From a virus (taxonomy: Duplodnaviria > Caudoviricetes), in the IMG/VR virus record IMGVR_UViG_3300033475_000009, positions 1 to 64,000 of that record: a stretch of DNA of 64,000 bases; one strand, written 5' to 3'. The notes under the pieces are model-generated. The model saw nothing but the letters and a program-made list of their open reading frames with translations, was not told where the DNA came from and searched no databases. Shown piece after piece: positions 3,753-10,560 of this stretch (its first letter is position 1; the number at the start of each line of letters is the position of its first letter). The translations under genes and the position numbers were made by a program.

Positions 3753-4510
3753 ATACTTTTTAAGAGTTTATATAATTCATAATTCCATCTTGCATCAGAG
3801 AGTGCATTATATTCATTGGTTTGAGTAGGGTAATTAGGATGTGTTTTTATTTCATGTCCATAAATAAATTGATCCTTATTAGATCCAAAATAAATTCTAC
3901 CATCACCTGTTTTATCATAAGCTTCAGTAATCTTATTTTCTAATTCCTGTTTCAGATCAATGCAATACATCGGAAATCCTTTGGGAAGATCAATCATCCT
4001 ACCAAATAACCAGCAGAATACTACCCAATCATAGTCTGAATAAAAGCCATAAAATTGAGGTAGTCTATTTTCTCTTTTTAATAATTCTATTCTGCCTTCG
4101 TAAGTTGATCTAGCTTCAGATGTCATTTTATTCCTAATAGTAAGTCCATTTTTTAAATCTAACTGATCTTTATAAGAAACAAAATCTTTAATCTCTTCTG
4201 CTATTTGTTTATTAGATTTACCAAAATGATTTATAAGTCTAGTAAATTCTTGTAGGTAGACTATCTCAGAGTAGTGTTGATATTTATCATTATTAAAAAG
4301 ATTCTTTAATACATTGTCTCTTAACCACTCATTATTCCAGGCAGCTTTTATATCAAAATCTTTAGATATGGCGTAGTACTCTCTACCATCTTCAGCTACT
4401 ACACCTATTGAAATTAATTCAATAGTATCTACTGGTTTATTACTCATTAAAATATCTAAAAGATTCTTCTTTTGATATTCATGAAATTCTGTATCTATAA
4501 AATATTTCAT
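3749..4510 (-). CDS. DEDD 3'-5' exo(ribo)nuclease, DUF5051/Rv2179c-like
   Basis: N-terminal YFIDTEF, ELISIGVVAEDGREYYA, YSDYDWVVFCWLFGRMIDLP, C-terminal NALSDARWN. Confidence 0.85.
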   Translation of the reverse strand: MKYFIDTEFHEYQKKNLLDILMSNKPVDTIELISIGVVAEDGREYYAISKDFDIKAAWNNEWLRDNVLKNLFNNDKYQHYSEIVYLQEFTRLINHFGKSNKQIAEEIKDFVSYKDQLDLKNGLTIRNKMTSEARSTYEGRIELLKRENRLPQFYGFYSDYDWVVFCWLFGRMIDLPKGFPMYCIDLKQELENKITEAYDKTGDGRIYFGSNKDQFIYGHEIKTHPNYPTQTNEYNALSDARWNYELYKLLKSI

Positions 4511-4511
4511 A

Positions 4512-4877
4512 TTAGTCTATAATCATATAGTTATTTAATTCCATATCTTCTCTTACATAATGATTAAAGCCTAACTCTTTATATCTAGTTTGTATAATTA
4601 AATCTTCACTATTAATTGATTTATTTACATATAACACTCTATCATATACTATATCATATAACTTCATGCCTTCTTTAAGTTCTTTATATGAAATAATATT
4701 TCTTAAAGTAGAACGGATTAATGCTCTCTTTTCATTAAGTAGAGTTAATATATAACTATAATCTACATATGATTTTTCTATGATACTTCCTAATTCTCCT
4801 GTATAAGCATGTGTATGAGGAAGGGATTGAAGTAGTTCTATTTCTACTTCTAATTTAAGTTTTTCTTTTTCTGTCAT
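4512..4877 (-). CDS. hypothetical protein (121 aa)
   Basis: ORF track. Confidence 0.65.
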   Translation of the reverse strand: MTEKEKLKLEVEIELLQSLPHTHAYTGELGSIIEKSYVDYSYILTLLNEKRALIRSTLRNIISYKELKEGMKLYDIVYDRVLYVNKSINSEDLIIQTRYKELGFNHYVREDMELNNYMIID

Positions 4878-4919
4878 AAATATTTATTTTGGGTTGTTTG
4901 CAATTTAGTAAAATATTAT

Positions 4920-4927
4920 TACCTTTA
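4920..4927 (+). promoter_or_regulatory. -7-like promoter element for leader 1
   Basis: TACCTTTA, TTTG at 4897-4900, ATG 4 nt downstream. Confidence 0.55.
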
Positions 4928-4931
4928 CATT

Positions 4932-4985
4932 ATGTTATTCACTAGAAAAAATAATAATGGTAAGGATTGGGCTAGAAGGGTCTAA
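4932..4985 (+). CDS. attenuator leader peptide 1 MLFTRKNNNGKDWARRV
   Basis: 17-codon ORF; KNNNGKDW run matches downstream tRNAs Trp/Gly/Asn/Asp/Lys. Confidence 0.85.
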   Translation: MLFTRKNNNGKDWARRV

Positions 4986-5012
4986 GGCTAAACTATTATA
5001 TAAATATATTAG

Positions 5013-5050
5013 AATCCTTAGACCTGATAAATCTAAGGATTTTTTATTTT
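5013..5050 (+). terminator. attenuator terminator 1
   Basis: AATCCTTAGA/TCTAAGGATT stem + TTTTATTTT; 5' arm can instead pair with GGTCTAAGG (4979-4987). Confidence 0.85.
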
Positions 5051-5052
5051 AT

Positions 5053-5121
5053 ACACTTTAGGCTAAGGTAGCCAAGAGATCTCCAAAATCTTAGGAAGTA
5101 GTTCGATTCTACTAGAGTGTG
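5053..5121 (+). tRNA. trnW: tRNA-Trp(CCA)
   Basis: ACACTTT/AGAGTGT acceptor, GAGAT-CTCCAAA-ATCTT anticodon arm, AGTAG-TTCGATT-CTACT T arm. Confidence 0.85.
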
Positions 5122-5126
5122 CATAA

Positions 5127-5198
5127 GCAGTATAAGTGTTGATGAATACATACCTGACTTCCAATCAGGAGTAGACAGATTATTACTGTCATACTGCT
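5127..5198 (+). tRNA. trnG: tRNA-Gly(TCC), atypical T loop
   Basis: GCAGTAT/ATACTGC, CCTGA-CTTCCAA-TCAGG, T loop ATTATTA, U73. Confidence 0.8.
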
Positions 5199-5203
5199 CT
5201 AAA

Positions 5204-5275
5204 GAGATAGGTAATAGTTCGATTCTATTTATAATATCTTAAAGATATTATAAGGTGTACTGGTGGCATAATCTC
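5204..5275 (+). ncRNA. circularly permuted tRNA-like RNA 1
   Basis: GAGAT - T arm AATAG/TTCGATT/CTATT - closed acceptor-like hairpin TATAATATCTT/AAGATATTATA - D arm GTGT/ACTGGTG/GCAT - ATCTC. Confidence 0.7.
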
Positions 5276-5279
5276 GCAT

Positions 5280-5351
5280 GGGAAGTTAGCTTAATGGTAA
5301 AGCTTCTAGCTGTTAACTAGAAAGATATTAGTTCGAGTCTAATACTTCCCT
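5280..5351 (+). tRNA. trnN: tRNA-Asn(GTT)
   Basis: GGGAAGT/ACTTCCC, TCTAG-CTGTTAA-CTAGA, canonical D and T arms. Confidence 0.95.
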
Positions 5352-5357
5352 CTACAA

Positions 5358-5513
5358 TGTTAGGTGATGAAATTGGTAGACATTTCCCTACTGTCTCTAG
5401 GGAGAGGAACAACTGATAAACTCAGAATAGTGGATTGACCACCAAAGTAAGTTAAAAGATATTTTGTTCTGAAGCTAAAGTCCTCGTGTAAGGTTCGAGT
5501 CCTTCCCTAACAG
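5358..5513 (+). ncRNA. tRNA-like RNA with GTC anticodon and 85-nt variable arm
   Basis: TGTTAGG/CCTAACA acceptor, class II-type D arm, TCCCTA-CTGTCTC-TAGGGA, variable arm closed by GAGGA/TCCTC, T loop TTCGAGT. Confidence 0.8.
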
Positions 5514-5514
5514 C

Positions 5515-5638
5515 TAAGAAAGAAGAATAGGTTAAAAACCTATATAAGTAAATGTTGGCTAGAACTAAAATATTAAAAGTAATATAGATAACGCTTTTAT
5601 TTTATACTTATTGATGTAACTGACAGCATACTTTCTTA
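5515..5638 (+). ncRNA. circularly permuted tRNA-like RNA 2
   Basis: TAAGAAAG - ATAGG/TTAAAAA/CCTAT - ATAAGTA...54 nt...TACTTAT - TG - ATGT/AACTGACA/GCAT - A - CTTTCTTA. Confidence 0.6.
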
Positions 5639-5642
5639 ACCT

Positions 5643-5714
5643 GGTCTATTAGTATAATGGTTATTATATTCCACTGTCACTGGAAAGAAGAGAATTCAAT
5701 TTTCTCATAGACCG
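5643..5714 (+). tRNA. trnD: tRNA-Asp(GTC)
   Basis: GGTCTAT/ATAGACC, TTCCA-CTGTCAC-TGGAA, G73. Confidence 0.9.
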
Positions 5715-5719
5715 CTTAT

Positions 5720-5793
5720 TTCCTTGTAGCTTAATTGGCTAAAGCACCATCCTTTTAAGATGGGTTATGTGAGTTCAAATCTCACCAGGGAAA
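5720..5793 (+). tRNA. trnK: tRNA-Lys(TTT)
   Basis: TTCCTTG/CAGGGAA, CCATC-CTTTTAA-GATGG. Confidence 0.92.
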
Positions 5794-5809
5794 CTAAAAT
5801 TTATTTTAT

Positions 5810-5817
5810 TATCTTTA
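5810..5817 (+). promoter_or_regulatory. -7-like element for HNH 1
   Basis: TATCTTTA-CAAA-ATG, same spacing as leaders 1 and 3. Confidence 0.45.
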
Positions 5818-5821
5818 CAAA

Positions 5822-6271
5822 ATGAAAAAATGTACTAGATGTAAAGAAGAAAAATCTTTTGAATCCTTTAGTATAAAAGGAAATAGAAAAAAAGATAATA
5901 GTATTATATATCAAGATTTTTGTAAGAATTGTCAAAATGAATATACTAAAAAATGGTATATAGAGAATAAAGAGAAACATAAAAGAAATACAGCTATTCT
6001 AAATAAGAAAAACTTTGAAAGTATTCGATATTACATATACAATTATTTAAAAGATAAAGAATGCATAGATTGTAAATCAATAGATTTTAGAACTTTTCAA
6101 TTTGATCATAGAGATAGAAATAACAAAGTTTCAGAAATATCTACAATGGTAAAAAATAGAGTTAGACTAGAATTGATAAAGTTAGAAATAAATAAATGTG
6201 ATATAAGATGTGCTAATTGTCATATCATTAAAACAGGTATTGAAAATAATGCTTGGTGGACAAAATTATAA
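5822..6271 (+). CDS. HNH endonuclease, homing type, with Zn-binding N-terminus
   Basis: CTRC...CKNC; CIDC...FQFDHRD...KCDIRCANCHIIKT. Confidence 0.85.
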   Translation: MKKCTRCKEEKSFESFSIKGNRKKDNSIIYQDFCKNCQNEYTKKWYIENKEKHKRNTAILNKKNFESIRYYIYNYLKDKECIDCKSIDFRTFQFDHRDRNNKVSEISTMVKNRVRLELIKLEINKCDIRCANCHIIKTGIENNAWWTKL

Positions 6272-6312
6272 AATATTTTTGTTTACTATTTTGAACTTTT
6301 AATTATTAATAT

Positions 6313-6320
6313 TAGTTTTG
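6313..6320 (+). promoter_or_regulatory. -7 promoter element for tRNA-Met and leader 2
   Basis: TAGTTTTG matches TAnnTTTG, 8 nt before the tRNA. Confidence 0.55.
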
Positions 6321-6328
6321 TACCATAT

Positions 6329-6401
6329 TGCGAGTAGGACAAGTGGCTAAGTCAGAAGTCTCATAAGCTTTCAGGAGTGGGTTCAATTCCCACACTCGCT
6401 A
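6329..6401 (+). tRNA. trnM: tRNA-Met(CAT), probably initiator type
   Basis: TGCGAGT/ACTCGCT with 1:72 mismatch, GAAGT-CTCATAA-GCTTT, A73. Confidence 0.85.
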
Positions 6402-6412
6402 CTAAAAATAAT

Positions 6413-6481
6413 ATGAAAAATTTATCACTATATAGTTTATGTTCGTATCTCTTATATAAAGAGGTTGATATAACTATATAG
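6413..6481 (+). CDS. attenuator leader peptide 2 MKNLSLYSLCSYLLYKEVDITI
   Basis: 22-codon ORF; 12 consecutive Leu/Ser/Tyr/Cys codons matching the downstream array. Confidence 0.88.
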   Translation: MKNLSLYSLCSYLLYKEVDITI

Positions 6482-6510
6482 TAAATAAAAAACTAATAAA
6501 TAGTTATTTG

Positions 6511-6545
6511 ACCTCTAGGAATAAAATCTTAGAGGTTTTTTATTT
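6511..6545 (+). terminator. attenuator terminator 2
   Basis: ACCTCTAGGA/TCTTAGAGGT + TTTTTATTT; alternative helix 6460-6477 with 6500-6516. Confidence 0.85.
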
Positions 6546-6548
6546 CAG

Positions 6549-6622
6549 GTCCTTATGATGGAATAGGTATACATACTAGTTTTAGAAACTAGGTTCTGTA
6601 GGTTCGAGTCCTACTAAGGATA
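6549..6622 (+). tRNA. trnL: tRNA-Leu(TAG), short variable region
   Basis: GTCCTTA/TAAGGAT, CTAGT-TTTAGAA-ACTAG, A73. Confidence 0.88.
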
Positions 6623-6625
6623 CAA

Positions 6626-6703
6626 GTACCATTGGTGGAATAGGTAGACACGCTACACTTAAGATGTAGTCTTCGGGTATAAGTTCGAGTCTTATATGGT
6701 ACA
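6626..6703 (+). tRNA. trnL: tRNA-Leu(TAA)
   Basis: GTACCAT/ATGGTAC, CTACA-CTTAAGA-TGTAG, miniature UUCG variable arm. Confidence 0.92.
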
Positions 6704-6708
6704 CAATA

Positions 6709-6779
6709 GGGATAAAGGTCAGGGTAACTCACAATGACTGTAAATCATAGGTGCTGAAGTTCGATTCTTCATTATCCCA
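6709..6779 (+). tRNA. trnY: tRNA-Tyr(GTA), short variable region
   Basis: GGGATAA/TTATCCC, ATGA-CTGTAAA-TCAT, TGAAG-TTCGATT-CTTCA, A73. Confidence 0.8.
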
Positions 6780-6784
6780 CTTAT

Positions 6785-6870
6785 AGAGAGTAAACTAATC
6801 AGGGGATTAGACCTTCCTGCTAAGAAGTGTGAAGCCTAAAAACTTTGAGTTTCGAGTACTCTGCTCTCTG
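6785..6870 (+). tRNA. trnS: tRNA-Ser(GCT)
   Basis: AGAGAGT/GCTCTCT, CTTC-CTGCTAA-GAAG, long variable arm, G73. Confidence 0.88.
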
Positions 6871-6876
6871 CTATAA

Positions 6877-6967
6877 GGAGGTTATCTGGCTGGATGAAGA
6901 GCCTGTCTTGAAAACAGGTAAGTCGATTTAATAAGTTGGCTTGTGAGTTCGAGTCTCACAGCCTCCT
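6877..6967 (+). tRNA. trnS: tRNA-Ser(TGA)
   Basis: GGAGGTT/AGCCTCC, CCTGT-CTTGAAA-ACAGG, long variable arm. Confidence 0.9.
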
Positions 6968-6970
6968 CTT

Positions 6971-7042
6971 GTCTAGTATTACTAATGGATAGTATATAGT
7001 CTGCAAAACTATAAATAGAAAGTTCGATTCTTTCACTAGACT
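6971..7042 (+). tRNA. trnC: tRNA-Cys(GCA)
   Basis: GTCTAGT/ACTAGAC, ATAGT-CTGCAAA-ACTAT, U73. Confidence 0.9.
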
Positions 7043-7066
7043 CTTGTTTATTTAAAATAAAATATA

Positions 7067-7074
7067 TAATTTTA
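7067..7074 (+). promoter_or_regulatory. -7-like element for leader 3
   Basis: TAATTTTA-CATT-ATG; TTTACATTATG is identical to leader 1. Confidence 0.5.
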
Positions 7075-7078
7075 CATT

Positions 7079-7153
7079 ATGAAACAGATAATAATAGCCA
7101 TTATTCGTATAGCAGTCAGATCTAATCTGAGTGAGGATAATGTTATTATATAA
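7079..7153 (+). CDS. attenuator leader peptide 3 MKQIIIAIIRIAVRSNLSEDNVII
   Basis: 24-codon ORF; 11 consecutive Ile/Ala/Arg/Val codons matching the downstream array. Confidence 0.88.
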   Translation: MKQIIIAIIRIAVRSNLSEDNVII

Positions 7154-7186
7154 GATACGATTGTTGTAGATTTTGATTAATACACT

Positions 7187-7221
7187 AGCCTTACTCTAAA
7201 AAAGTAGGGCTTTTGTATTTT
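7187..7221 (+). terminator. attenuator terminator 3
   Basis: AGCCTTACT/AGTAGGGCT + TTTGTATTTT; alternative pairing GAGTGAGG (7129-7136) with CCTTACTC (7189-7196). Confidence 0.82.
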
Positions 7222-7223
7222 AT

Positions 7224-7296
7224 GGGGGATTAGTTAAGATGAATATAATAATACACTTGCAATGTATAGTCAGGAGTTTGAGTCTCCTATTCTCCA
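7224..7296 (+). tRNA. trnA: tRNA-Ala(TGC)
   Basis: GGGGGAT/ATTCTCC with G3:U70, ATACA-CTTGCAA-TGTAT. Confidence 0.9.
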
Positions 7297-7301
7297 CTAG
7301 T

Positions 7302-7373
7302 AGGAATATAGTAGAAAGGTTAGCACAATTGCCTGATAAGCAATTAATCCTAGTTCGAGTCTAGGTATTCCTA
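7302..7373 (+). tRNA. trnI: tRNA-Ile(GAT)
   Basis: AGGAATA/TATTCCT, ATTGC-CTGATAA-GCAAT. Confidence 0.9.
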
Positions 7374-7377
7374 CTAT

Positions 7378-7449
7378 AGCTTTATAGTACAATGGATAGT
7401 ACATCTGTCTTCTAAACAGAGAATGATTGTTCGATTCAATCTAAAGCTA
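7378..7449 (+). tRNA. trnR: tRNA-Arg(TCT)
   Basis: AGCTTTA/TAAAGCT, TCTGT-CTTCTAA-ACAGA. Confidence 0.92.
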
Positions 7450-7452
7450 CAG

Positions 7453-7524
7453 GGAAGTATAGTTCAATGAATAGAATCTATAGCTACGGACTATAGGATA
7501 AAGGTTTGAATCCTTTTACTTCCT
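7453..7524 (+). tRNA. trnR: tRNA-Arg(ACG)
   Basis: GGAAGTA/TACTTCC, TATAG-CTACGGA-CTATA. Confidence 0.88.
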
Positions 7525-7529
7525 CTTAT

Positions 7530-7600
7530 TGCTTATTAGTTTAATGGAAGAACACTAGTTTTACATACTAGTAGAGATAGTTCGATTCTATCATAAGCAA
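7530..7600 (+). tRNA. trnV: tRNA-Val(TAC)
   Basis: TGCTTAT/ATAAGCA, CTAGT-TTTACAT-ACTAG. Confidence 0.9.
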
Positions 7601-7605
7601 CATAC

Positions 7606-7680
7606 TGAGAGTTCATATAATGGTTATTATGCCAATCTTATACATTGGTCAAAAGAGTTCAATTCTCTTACTCTCTACCA
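7606..7680 (+). tRNA. trnI: tRNA-Ile(TAT)
   Basis: TGAGAGT/ACTCTCT (1:72 mismatch), CCAAT-CTTATAC-ATTGG, A73, encoded CCA. Confidence 0.85.
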
Positions 7681-7725
7681 TTAAAACTTTTATTATTTTT
7701 ATTTTGTATATATTATACTTTATAT

Positions 7726-7733
7726 TACCTTTG
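7726..7733 (+). promoter_or_regulatory. -7 promoter element for leader 4
   Basis: TACCTTTG, exact TAnnTTTG match; ATG 7 nt downstream. Confidence 0.65.
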
Positions 7734-7740
7734 AATTAAT

Positions 7741-7800
7741 ATGAAGAATGTAACAATCTTTACTCCCTTTACGCAAGAGCATCAGTTTCTGATGGGGTAA
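7741..7800 (+). CDS. attenuator leader peptide 4 MKNVTIFTPFTQEHQFLMG
   Basis: 19-codon ORF; Thr/Phe/Gln/Glu/His make up 10 of 12 codons in the control run, matching the downstream array. Confidence 0.88.
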   Translation: MKNVTIFTPFTQEHQFLMG

Positions 7801-7833
7801 AGGATATTGTTTTCTTCTACATTAAATTTCCTT

Positions 7834-7871
7834 CCCTATCAAACTAAAAATCTGATAGGGTTTTTCTTTTT
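7834..7871 (+). terminator. attenuator terminator 4
   Basis: CCCTATCA/TGATAGGG + TTTTTCTTTTT; alternative pairing TGATGGGG (7790-7797) with CCCTATCA. Confidence 0.85.
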
Positions 7872-7881
7872 ATGTATTTAT

Positions 7882-8382
7882 ATGATAGTAAGTTGTCAAC
7901 ACTGTGGAAAAGATTTTAATTGTACTAGTAGAAGATATAATTTTAATATTAAAAAAGGTTTTAAAATATATTGTTCTAGAGAATGTAATCATAAAGATAA
8001 AATTAAAAACATAATAGTAAGATGTAATTATTGTGGTAAAGAAGTAATTAAAAAACAATATAATCTAAATAAAACTAAATCAGGTAATTATTATTGTAAT
8101 AAGTCTTGTGCTAATTCTATAAATAATTCTTTGTATAAAGTTGGAGAAAAGCATCCTAATTTTATTAATGGTAGATCCTCATATAGAAATATAAAACTTA
8201 GAGATTCTAATTACTGCTGTGAAAATTGTGGAATAACTGATAAAAGAGTTATAGAAGTTCATCATATAGACAGAGATAGAACCAATAATAAATTAGAAAA
8301 TCTTAAAATTTTATGTGCTAATTGTCACTTAATAGAACATTATGAAGAAAGAAAATTAAAAAATGGTGTTAGTGGCAGATAG
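7882..8382 (+). CDS. HNH endonuclease with Cys-rich Zn-binding repeats (166 aa from the corrected start)
   Basis: CQHCGK..YCSREC, CNYCGK..YCNKSC, CENCG..EVHHIDRDRTNNKLENLKILCANCH; start moved downstream of the terminator. Confidence 0.85.
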   Translation: MIVSCQHCGKDFNCTSRRYNFNIKKGFKIYCSRECNHKDKIKNIIVRCNYCGKEVIKKQYNLNKTKSGNYYCNKSCANSINNSLYKVGEKHPNFINGRSSYRNIKLRDSNYCCENCGITDKRVIEVHHIDRDRTNNKLENLKILCANCHLIEHYEERKLKNGVSGR

Positions 8383-8437
8383 GTAATGCGCTAGTTTGTG
8401 AAGCTAGTTTATATGGGTTCAAATCCCATCTAACACC
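8365..8437 (+). tRNA. trnH: tRNA-His(GTG)
   Basis: G-1:C73, GTGTTAG/CTAACAC, CTAGT-TTGTGAA-GCTAG. Confidence 0.92.
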
Positions 8438-8442
8438 TATTA

Positions 8443-8514
8443 GCTCCTGTCGTCTAGTGGCTAGGACGAATGCTTTTCAAGCATTAAAAGAGGGATCGAA
8501 ACCCTTCAGGAGTA
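8443..8514 (+). tRNA. trnE: tRNA-Glu(TTC)
   Basis: GCTCCTG/CAGGAGT, AATGC-TTTTCAA-GCATT. Confidence 0.9.
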
Positions 8515-8520
8515 CTATAT

Positions 8521-8594
8521 TCCAGATTAGTTTTATATGGCTAAAACACATCTCTTGTAAAGATAAGTACTCAGTTCGATGCTGAGATCTGGAT
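8521..8594 (+). tRNA. trnT: tRNA-Thr(TGT)
   Basis: TCCAGAT/ATCTGGA, ATCT-CTTGTAA-AGAT, CTCAG-TTCGATG-CTGAG. Confidence 0.88.
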
Positions 8595-8599
8595 CTTAT

Positions 8600-8672
8600 G
8601 GAACTAAAGCTAATCAGGTGAAAGCACTGGTCTGAAAAACCAGAGAGGTTAGATCGTTACTAACTGGTTCCA
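8600..8672 (+). tRNA. trnF: tRNA-Phe(GAA)
   Basis: GGAACTA/TGGTTCC, CTGGT-CTGAAAA-ACCAG. Confidence 0.88.
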
Positions 8673-8679
8673 CACATAA

Positions 8680-8752
8680 TGTCCTATGGTGTAATTGGCA
8701 ACACGTCTGACTTTGATTCAGGAGAGTCTAGGTTCAAACCCTAGTAGGATAA
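8680..8752 (+). tRNA. trnQ: tRNA-Gln(TTG)
   Basis: TGTCCTA/TAGGATA, TCTGA-CTTTGAT-TCAGG. Confidence 0.92.
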
Positions 8753-8757
8753 CTAAG

Positions 8758-8928
8758 TTATTTTATAATTAATTTTGTTATAAAATTCTTAATTTTAGAT
8801 AATATATTTTCTTCACTAACTATCTGAGTACTAATTTCTTCTATTACCTTAGTATCTTCTACTTTATTTTTATATCTTTTTAAGTGAGTAAATCCACTAT
8901 GTTTTCTATGTCTATTTCTATTTCTCAT
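8758..8928 (-). CDS. small hypothetical protein (56 aa) with basic N-terminus
   Basis: Manual translation MRNRNRHRKHSGFTHLKRYKNKVEDTKVIEEIS...; not in the ORF track. Confidence 0.4.
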   Translation of the reverse strand: MRNRNRHRKHSGFTHLKRYKNKVEDTKVIEEISTQIVSEENILSKIKNFITKLIIK

Positions 8929-8995
8929 ATAACATTTATTTATTTTATATTTAAAATTAATAATTAATTATATGGTTTTATAATTATTTTAATTA

Positions 8996-9003
8996 TATAT
9001 TTG
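8996..9003 (+). promoter_or_regulatory. -7 promoter element at the start of the + strand module
   Basis: TATATTTG upstream of ORF 9030. Confidence 0.55.
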
Positions 9004-9029
9004 TCTAACCAAAACAATAGTAGTTATAT

Positions 9030-9425
9030 ATGTCAGAAGTAGGTACTTCATCCAAGATATTAACTCTTAGGATTAGTCAGGAAGATTATATAGAGAAGTA
9101 CCTACTTCTTTGGAAAGGTTATTTAAATCTTACTAATAGTGATATATCTGTTCTTAAAGAATTTATTATTATATTTCGTAGTATAAATAATACTAATGAG
9201 GATTTAGCTTTCATAGAAGTATTTAATAAAGAAAATAGGAAAGTAGTAGCTGATAGATTAGGCATATCTGAATACTCATTTAATAATATCTTTATGAGGT
9301 TAAAGAATGAGAAAGGTATTATACAGAAGACCAGATATGGATACAGACTTAATCCTAAAGTACTACCAGTAGATGAAATTACCTTTAAATTTAAGATAGA
9401 TGGCATACAATCTAGTACCTACTGA
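9030..9425 (+). CDS. putative winged-helix DNA-binding protein
   Basis: HTH-like RKVVADRLGISEYSFNNIFMRLKNEKGII followed by a beta wing. Confidence 0.6.
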   Translation: MSEVGTSSKILTLRISQEDYIEKYLLLWKGYLNLTNSDISVLKEFIIIFRSINNTNEDLAFIEVFNKENRKVVADRLGISEYSFNNIFMRLKNEKGIIQKTRYGYRLNPKVLPVDEITFKFKIDGIQSSTY

Positions 9426-9735
9426 TCTATATGATAATATAAAAAGAAATGAAGTTACTATAGTTGAAGATTATATTAAGACATTAGAATATAATAATAA
9501 AACTTTAGATTTCATTACTACTTTATTTATGTATGCAGTAACTATGAAGGTATATGATACTGCTAAAATGCTAGCTTGTTATGGAGCTAATACTCATGGA
9601 AACTGGGGAGACTGGGCATTATATTATAATATGAGAAGAAGAGTGCCTTTTATAGGCCCAGTAATTAATGATCCTAGAGAGGTATGCGAATCTTGTGGTA
9701 AAACTACTATATGTAAATGTGGATGTAATGAATAA
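9400..9735 (+). CDS. hypothetical protein with C-terminal Cys cluster
   Basis: CESCGKTTICKCGC. Confidence 0.6.
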   Translation: MAYNLVPTDLYDNIKRNEVTIVEDYIKTLEYNNKTLDFITTLFMYAVTMKVYDTAKMLACYGANTHGNWGDWALYYNMRRRVPFIGPVINDPREVCESCGKTTICKCGCNE

Positions 9736-9994
9736 AGTTATAGCTTATAAAACTATTTTAATAAATACTTCTACTAATTGTACTTTTATAGCTAGTAAAT
9801 TAGACGAACAAATTCAAACAGGTTCTAGAAATAATGATAGCCATATAGAATGGGCAGGGGAACTAGATATTTCTATAATAAATAATTTAAAATACTTACT
9901 TTATGAGTTATACGAAGATATAAAACATGGTGATGAAGAACATCAGTTATGGTTAAAAAATAAAATAGATGATTTTATAAAAATTAAAAGTTAA
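9668..9994 (+). CDS. hypothetical protein; true start probably ATG 9728
   Basis: ORF track; HGDEEHQLWLKNKI motif. Confidence 0.55.
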   Translation: MILERYANLVVKLLYVNVDVMNKVIAYKTILINTSTNCTFIASKLDEQIQTGSRNNDSHIEWAGELDISIINNLKYLLYELYEDIKHGDEEHQLWLKNKIDDFIKIKS

Positions 9995-10006
9995 ACTTAA
10001 AACTAT

Positions 10007-10249
10007 ATGGATTTCGGAAGTGCTTTTACAGCTATAAAAGATAGTACTTTATCTAAAATATTTAATAATAATCCTAAAGGTATGAGGCTACCTTCTTGGA
10101 GTAGTGATGTAATTATTAGAATATATAAACCTATAGAAGGTAGTGATATGACTGCTCCTTATTTATATGTAGAAAGTAGATTTGGTAGAGTACCTTGGAA
10201 AGAAACTATGATTGAACTTTTTTCTGATAATTGGGAATTAGTAGACTAA
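10007..10249 (+). CDS. DUF2829-family protein (Tad2-like)
   Basis: MDFGSAF..K...MRLPSW...MTAPYLY......PWKETMIELFSDNWELV. Confidence 0.7.
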   Translation: MDFGSAFTAIKDSTLSKIFNNNPKGMRLPSWSSDVIIRIYKPIEGSDMTAPYLYVESRFGRVPWKETMIELFSDNWELVD

Positions 10250-10560
10250 AATATTATATGAGTCAATATCTTAATCTATATAAAAGAGTTCAAGCTAATC
10301 TTAAAGCTAAAGGTATAGAAGTAGAGATTAGAGTTATAGAAAAATGCTTCAGACACCAGTTTAAATTTACTAGAAAGATAATAGAAACCGGTGATTGGTA
10401 TGCAGTAAGATTACAGTACTTAGGTATATTTGGAGTTAAAACTAATAGAGTTAAATATACTAATCAGGGTGAGATTAGAAATCAGGTAATAGAAGCTAAT
10501 AAAGGAGATATTGTCACAGTTAAAACCCCATCTAATAAGTACATTAACATACGGGTATAA
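10231..10560 (+). CDS. HU/IHF-like DNA-binding protein
   Basis: Helical N-terminus then VRLQYLGIFGVK arm. Confidence 0.5.
   Translation: MGISRLKYYMSQYLNLYKRVQANLKAKGIEVEIRVIEKCFRHQFKFTRKIIETGDWYAVRLQYLGIFGVKTNRVKYTNQGEIRNQVIEANKGDIVTVKTPSNKYINIRV

Follow-up and report, generated by a model that had tools for sequence, protein, structure and literature searches.

A probable leader-peptide attenuator in front of six tRNA genes in the tRNA array of a crAss-like phage

What tRNA genes do for phages has been a matter of debate for decades, and the regulation of these genes is, to our knowledge, essentially unaddressed. Proposals for their purpose include codon compensation, replacement of a decaying host tRNA pool and escape from tRNA-cleaving defences (PMC10264068, PMC11555353, PMC11464382). 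The locus analyzed here brings regulation to the fore, since it poses a simple question: why does a spacer within a phage tRNA array contain a short ORF built from isoleucine, alanine, arginine and valine codons, followed by a strong hairpin, immediately in front of tRNA genes for those same amino acids?

The window, that is, the whole stretch of DNA under analysis, covers positions 1-64,000 of a virus record of 90,549 bp from a soil assembly, with direct terminal repeats and 27% G+C. Terminase and portal of this genome match crAss-like families, and the host of the phage is likely a member of the Bacteroidota, because the closest isolates by terminase (~35% identity) are crAss-like phages of Flavobacterium, Cellulophaga and Bacteroides. 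A plus-strand tRNA array occupies 4930-8753, between a minus-strand RNase H gene and the packaging genes. It comprises 21 tRNA genes by default search, to which Rfam and a relaxed search add Gly(UCC) and Ser(GCU). The array can be read as a chain of four candidate attenuator units, each with a leader ORF and a terminator before a block of tRNA genes, and the spacer at 7079-7221 is the third (Table 1). A tRNA-Met gene at 6329-6402 lies outside any attenuator. It follows a promoter-like site and ends 10 nt short of the leader 2 ATG; leader 2 would therefore be co-transcribed with it and lack a promoter of its own. A second tRNA-Met(CAU) gene is found outside the window (genome positions 87306-87380, minus strand), solitary and far from the array. 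In addition, a tRNA-like element of ~160 nt at 5353-5520, located between tRNA-Asn and tRNA-Asp, displays complementary acceptor-like ends, a T-arm-like stretch near its 3' end and a long internal insertion; it was called by neither Aragorn nor Rfam.

Table 1. Features of the tRNA array, with unit 3 given in detail (window coordinates).
Feature	Coordinates	Strand	Remarks
Unit 1 (candidate attenuator)	4932-5052	+	leader 4932-4985, run Lys/Asn/Gly/Asp/Trp; terminator 5013-5041; downstream tRNA genes Trp, Gly(UCC), Asn, Asp, Lys
tRNA-Gly(UCC)	5127-5199	+	missed by default tRNA search; found by Rfam or relaxed search
HNH endonuclease gene 1	5822-6271		inserted in array
Unit 2 (candidate attenuator)	6413-6548	+	leader 6413-6481, run Leu/Ser/Tyr/Cys; terminator 6510-6537; downstream tRNA genes Leu, Leu, Tyr, Ser(GCU), Ser(UGA), Cys
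tRNA-Ser(GCU)	6783-6871	+	missed by default tRNA search; found by Rfam or relaxed search
Possible Bacteroidota-type -7 promoter box, unit 3	7067-7074	+	4 nt before ATG; from sequence reading
Putative leader ORF, unit 3	7079-7153	+	24 codons plus stop (ATG to TAA)
Control run, unit 3	7088-7120	+	codons 4-14: Ile x6, Ala x2, Arg x2, Val x1
Region 1	7091-7106	+	5' strand of helix 1:2, within control run
Region 2	7129-7149	+	7135-7149 pairs with region 1; 7129-7136 pairs with terminator 5' arm (antiterminator)
Intrinsic terminator hairpin (regions 3 and 4)	7187-7211	+	5' arm 7187-7196 common to antiterminator
U-rich tract of terminator	7212-7221	+	ends 2 nt before tRNA-Ala
Putatively regulated block of unit 3	7224-7680	+	six tRNA genes
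tRNA-Ala(UGC)	7224-7297	+	
tRNA-Ile(GAU)	7302-7374	+	
tRNA-Arg(UCU)	7378-7450	+	
tRNA-Arg(ACG)	7453-7525	+	
tRNA-Val(UAC)	7530-7601	+	
tRNA-Ile(UAU)	7606-7680	+	
Unit 4 (candidate attenuator)	7741-7872	+	leader 7741-7800, run Thr/Phe/Gln/Glu/His; terminator 7834-7860
HNH endonuclease gene 2	7873-8382		inserted in array; parts attenuator 4 from its tRNA genes by ~500 nt
tRNA genes downstream of unit 4	8365-8753	+	after the HNH gene: His, Glu, Thr, Phe, Gln

Between tRNA-Cys, which ends at 7043, and tRNA-Ala, which starts at 7224, the ORF of unit 3 is the sole plus-strand ORF of at least 20 codons. Its codons 4-14 read Ile-Ile-Ile-Ala-Ile-Ile-Arg-Ile-Ala-Val-Arg without a break, and are spelled with AUA four times, AUU twice, and GCC, GCA, CGU, AGA and GUC once each. 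The Ala/Ile/Arg/Val set has a background frequency of 0.22 in this genome; among the about 180,000 codons of all six frames over 90,549 bp, this 11-residue run is the longest and the only one of its length. It sits directly upstream of tRNA genes for exactly those four amino acids, and every one of the six downstream tRNAs has a codon in it. The original prediction had further claimed that both Ile and both Arg isoacceptors of the block are represented, and the codons bear this out: AUA corresponds to Ile(UAU), AUU to Ile(GAU), CGU to Arg(ACG) and AGA to Arg(UCU). Synonymous shares in the phage genes are 5% for GCC, 2% for CGU and 2% for GUC. Since only 2% of Arg codons in the phage ORFs are CGU, its appearance in the leader cannot be put down to general codon usage. 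The U34 tRNAs of unit 3 can decode GCC and GUC only via extended wobble; these two may have been placed as deliberately ‘hungry’ codons, or the helices that contain them may require their bases. Codons that are rare in the phage also occur in the control runs of unit 2 (UCG and CUC, 6422-6457) and unit 4 (ACG, CCC and AUC, 7753-7788), and rare control codons may in general reflect selection for slow decoding or for helix base pairing. The unit had also been described as weighted to AUA. This holds as a count, AUA being the commonest control codon (4 of 11, three of them in tandem), but not as an enrichment: four of the six Ile codons in the leader are AUA, compared with 57% in the long ORFs of the phage (binomial p about 0.5). 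The AUA content of the leader mirrors demand, and the emphasis on this codon is descriptive, without special weighting.

All helices of the original prediction (1:2, 2:3 and 3:4) are present where it had placed them. Helix 1:2 joins 7091-7106 to 7135-7149, and the segment 7088-7152 folds with -16.7 kcal/mol (z -3.5), a value equalled by 1 of 200 shuffled sequences. Helix 2:3 comprises eight pairs, one of them G-U, between 7129-7136 and 7189-7196; the antiterminator segment 7127-7198 folds with -16.3 kcal/mol (z -2.6), and the duplex of the leader 3' half with the terminator arm was matched by 11 of 2000 shuffles. The hairpin at 7187-7211 has nine pairs and a loop of 7 and reaches -11.3 kcal/mol with flanks (z -3.9), a value seen in none of 200 shuffles. 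The antiterminator and the terminator have one strand in common, as do helix 1:2 and the antiterminator; helix 1:2 also extends over control codons, and helices 1:2 and 2:3 are nearly equal in energy. A strong terminator that separates an ORF from the first tRNA gene and ends 2 nt short of it is in a position that is sensible only for an attenuator.

Since the decision between these structures would fall during transcription, the RNA was folded as it stands before the 3' arm of the terminator exists (transcript 7079-7202), with a ribosome mask of 29 nt placed around each possible A-site codon. In this truncated transcript, the terminator 5' arm is held in the antiterminator, and its pairing probability is 0.80-0.84 with the A site at any of codons 2-14 (0.73 at codon 14). 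Beyond the run it declines, with values of 0.36 (codon 15), 0.26 (codon 16) and 0.10 (codon 17), and it stands at 0.24 when the ribosome is at the stop. Varying the assumed ribosome reach from +9 to +16 nt leaves this drop between codons 13 and 16. In the model, the switch point thus coincides with the end of the control run, the last control codon being the last stall that permits antitermination, as the classical attenuation model requires. Full-length equilibrium folding alone is weak support for a switch: with stalls at codons 4-12 the terminator keeps a probability above 0.85, and only stalls at codons 13-14 destabilize it. Because the terminator persists at equilibrium for most stalls, the model depends on co-transcriptional folding order, as it does for trp. 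Moreover, the antiterminator is already the minimum-energy fold of the truncated transcript without a ribosome, so the untranslated ‘off’ state would rely on helix 1:2 forming first.

The equilibrium result lends some weight to a different output. A translated, switching leader could act on pre-tRNA processing or stability, for example through access of RNase P or RNase E, with the hairpin serving mainly as a pause or processing signal instead of a terminator. Hairpin and U tract end 2 nt before the tRNA 5' end, which is the RNase P cut site, and this too would suit such a role. We nevertheless consider it improbable, given that 7187-7211 and its U tract have the makeup of an intrinsic terminator and that the same hairpin with at least six U recurs 8-12 nt before the first tRNA in more than 10 units of five phages.

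Transcription attenuation is also the reading suggested by the rest of the array. In units 1, 2 and 4, each control run is the best or only such window in the genome and lies before the block that encodes those tRNAs, and mask folding places the switch point within about two codons of the run end. The leaders even had predictive value for annotation. A Gly codon in leader 1 and an AGU codon in leader 2 predicted Gly(UCC) and Ser(GCU) genes that the default search had missed, and both were then found. Unit 3 has no 3' terminator of its own, and read-through transcripts would therefore continue into unit 4.

Searches via the RNase H and terminase genes, together with a tRNA scan of 45 related records, revealed four further arrays with the same architecture on Bacteroidota-phage contigs. 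One of them (L033) has one unit, one (L116) has three units that cover all its tRNAs, and another (L121) has three units as well. The fourth, reached through a tRNA match, is the cultured Maribacter phage Panino (L158; PP540027.1), with two units at about 4428-4556 and 5449-5567. The first Panino leader lies inside a gene annotated as a hypothetical protein, and the paper describing this phage mentions 20 tRNAs and no such control. The leaders of these four phages are dissimilar in sequence and composition, and they go with the tRNA sets of their own units. When leaders were assigned by hand, 10 of 11 fitted their own tRNA set best and 59 of 60 set amino acids were present in the own leader, a match equalled by none of 200,000 permutations. 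A set-blind procedure, which pairs a strong terminator at most 40 nt ahead of a tRNA with the longest ORF whose end lies 10-100 nt upstream, likewise gave 0 of 200,000 permutations as good for 12 units, even with the wrong ORF picked twice. In most units of the other phages, including both of Panino, mask folding again puts the switch where the control run ends, and more than 10 units in five phages carry a strong hairpin with a run of at least six U, 8-12 nt before the first tRNA. Such leaders are absent from the array of the Bacteroides phage crAss001, from a 178-kb contig with scattered tRNAs (L117, L118) and from Flavobacterium phage Fpv20, where the terminase vicinity is free of tRNAs. 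Judged from these sequences, the leader-attenuator device is lineage-restricted and not universal. Scanning viral and metagenome contigs by terminase yielded no additional relative that reaches the array, and a search with the protein downstream of the array returned nothing.

The nearest relative of the window phage (L002; terminase 76% identical) is available only as a 7-kb fragment and tells a different story. In its first 480 nt, a unit 1 promoter region is joined to a homologue of the unit 3 leader, which is followed only by tRNA-Pro, tRNA-His and a degenerate tRNA-like stretch, so that leader and tRNAs are mismatched. Its 1:2 hairpin is as good as that of the window (z -3.5) and its terminator is weak (-5.9 kcal/mol, z -1.1). 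We read this arrangement as the product of deletions between paralogous units, which reduced the array and left behind a mismatched and decaying attenuator. The fragment shows that a leader sequence can outlive its matching tRNAs, and of the comparative evidence it counts most against a strict rule. A degenerate DNA pattern made from the parts common to both sequences had no match in metagenome contigs and only this fragment in viral contigs. It is the only homologue of the unit 3 leader found, and the ungapped consensus fold of the two sequences retains only the inner hairpin. The fragment may also account for a peculiarity of unit 4, whose leader carries a lone Pro codon in a window without a tRNA-Pro gene. 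In L002, tRNA-Pro lies directly before tRNA-His, and in the window an HNH gene may now take the Pro position.

It is conceivable that the product of the ORF is a small hydrophobic peptide that has its own function, in which case the likeness to the tRNA set would be coincidental and the hairpin an ordinary terminator or structural element. The N-terminal half of the unit 3 peptide is indeed hydrophobic, and the L002 homologue has kept a similar N-terminus without the matching tRNAs. We regard this possibility as very unlikely. Within one array, each of four ORFs reflects the tRNA block that belongs to it, unrelated leaders elsewhere reflect different blocks, the predicted switch point is at the end of the run, and the rare GCC, CGU and GUC point to selection on nucleotides or codons and not on the peptide.

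If the ORF is a leader, its transcript may begin at or very near the start codon. The possible -7 box of unit 3 has the same spacing to the ATG as boxes at unit 1, in L002, in L033, in L116 and in phage Panino, which suggests leaderless or nearly leaderless leader mRNAs. The box-plus-ATG sites are at 4920-4934 and 7067-7081 in the window, and at about 50-66 in L002, 5643-5660 in L033, 1052-1068 in L116 and 4415-4430 in Panino. The -33 element of the putative unit 3 promoter is imperfect, and such boxes 4 nt ahead of an ATG are not significantly enriched in the window, where 9 occur, 4.7 are expected and 7 of 100 shuffles have 9 or more.

The lack of motif enrichment would agree with a chance origin, in which an Ile-rich ORF happens to lie in an AT-rich spacer and the terminator simply ends transcription of the preceding tRNA block; in a genome of 27% G+C, random frames often contain Ile codons in any case. 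We find chance barely credible. The control run is unique in the six-frame search and occurs at the one matching place, permutation across units never reproduced the agreement between leaders and tRNA sets, and the helices outperform shuffled sequence.

Taken together, we propose that 7079-7221 is a working leader-peptide attenuator that exerts negative feedback on the supply of six tRNAs, a reading of the sequence and folding models to which we assign a probability of about 0.78. It is supported by its fit to the anatomy of the locus, the statistics, the mask folding, the sister units and the examples from other phages, while translation of the leader, its promoter and the response in the cell are what we infer. 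The element would be a ribosome-mediated transcription attenuator of the trp/ilv type that controls six tRNA genes instead of enzymes. Transcription would start at the ATG or a few bases before it, or arrive from the upstream tRNA block, and a ribosome would translate the 24-codon leader while RNA polymerase moves ahead. When charged tRNA is scarce for AUA, AUU, GCN, CGU, AGA or GUN, the ribosome might stall within codons 4-14 and cover region 1. Region 2 (7129-7136 and its inner helices, -16.3 kcal/mol) could then capture 7189-7196 as soon as it is made, and with the 5' arm of the terminator thus sequestered, the polymerase would read on into tRNA-Ala, Ile, Arg, Arg, Val and Ile. Under fast decoding, the ribosome would pass codon 14, cover region 2 and reach the stop codon, the hairpin at 7187-7211 would form, and transcription would end 2 nt before tRNA-Ala. 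Without translation, helix 1:2 could form first and termination would again be possible. The predicted outcome is isoacceptor-resolved negative feedback on exactly those tRNAs, in one of four units that cover the array.

A stall in the leader cannot separate a shortage of tRNA from amino-acid starvation. In the trp, his and ilv attenuators, ribosome stalling depends on charged tRNA, and both shortages look alike to the ribosome. The attenuator might therefore mainly report amino-acid starvation or a general slowing of translation, and co-regulate the tRNAs with amino-acid supply without acting as a tRNA homeostat. This seems improbable to us, as extra tRNA gives no relief from amino-acid starvation and the isoacceptor resolution of the run (CGU with Arg(ACG), AUA with Ile(UAU)) fits tRNA supply better. 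A further, tentative idea, which we think rather unlikely, is that these attenuators are tripwires for the loss of particular host tRNAs and supply replacements only for the isoacceptors that become limiting. Such a loss could come about through anticodon nucleases, other tRNA-targeting defences or decay of the host pool. If this were true, phage tRNA arrays would be an inducible, self-tuning counter-defence as well as a codon supply, and not constitutive cargo.

A leader written in the codons of the downstream tRNAs would mean that the phage's own signal is slow decoding of those codons. Codon-matched leaders thereby make the competing ideas about phage tRNAs testable by simple reporters, and a cultured phage-host pair with the same device is available in Maribacter phage Panino on Maribacter halichondriae. 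The leaders could also serve as an annotation rule, as they did here for two missed tRNA genes, and as a possible way to assign ambiguous CAU-anticodon tRNAs. Finally, for use in Bacteroidota, they might offer natural sensors, modular in build, of the capacity to decode particular codons.

A full-text literature search, which included the Panino paper, found no leader-peptide or attenuation control of tRNA genes or of phage tRNA arrays. Several known systems resemble the proposed one in part. Stringent and growth-rate control of bacterial tRNA operons also fits tRNA transcription to translational demand; it acts globally on promoters, at initiation via ppGpp and DksA, without the specificity for codons or isoacceptors proposed for unit 3. 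T-box riboswitches likewise sense the state of a particular tRNA and operate a terminator/antiterminator switch before translation-related genes. However, they bind uncharged tRNA through a specifier codon and a conserved T-box sequence and involve no ribosome or ORF. At 4500-10500, neither a T-box nor any other cis-regulatory Rfam family was detected, the only matches being tRNAs (E up to 1). In the pheST operon of E. coli, with its pheM leader, a component of the translation apparatus is attenuated through decoding of cognate codons. This is the nearest case of a translation component under leader-peptide control, although its target is an aminoacyl-tRNA synthetase, a single amino acid is sensed and no tRNA gene is involved.

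Nearest in logic are multivalent biosynthetic leaders. The ilvGMEDA leader senses Ile, Leu and Val and the thr leader Thr and Ile; further cases of leader control are trpL, hisL and pheL. The ilv and thr leaders have in common with unit 3 a short leader ORF whose regulatory codons cover several amino acids, 1:2, 2:3 and 3:4 helices and an intrinsic terminator; translation of the leader and an antiterminator favoured by the stalled ribosome are predicted for unit 3 as well. They differ in that the products of unit 3 are the tRNAs that decode the control codons and not biosynthetic enzymes, so that the loop would close on tRNA supply. Furthermore, all members of the downstream set, down to isoacceptors, are represented in its run, and units of this kind are chained in one array, probably in a Bacteroidota host and possibly with a leaderless leader mRNA. 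Unit 3 has the hallmarks of a leader attenuator: an upstream ORF on the same strand, a run of regulatory codons, a terminator and alternative helices. Its downstream genes fall outside the classical target class of amino-acid biosynthesis, transport and synthetase genes. Because the genes under apparent control are six tRNAs, unit 3 is, on sequence and folding grounds, best classed as a variant of leader-peptide attenuation rather than an ordinary member.
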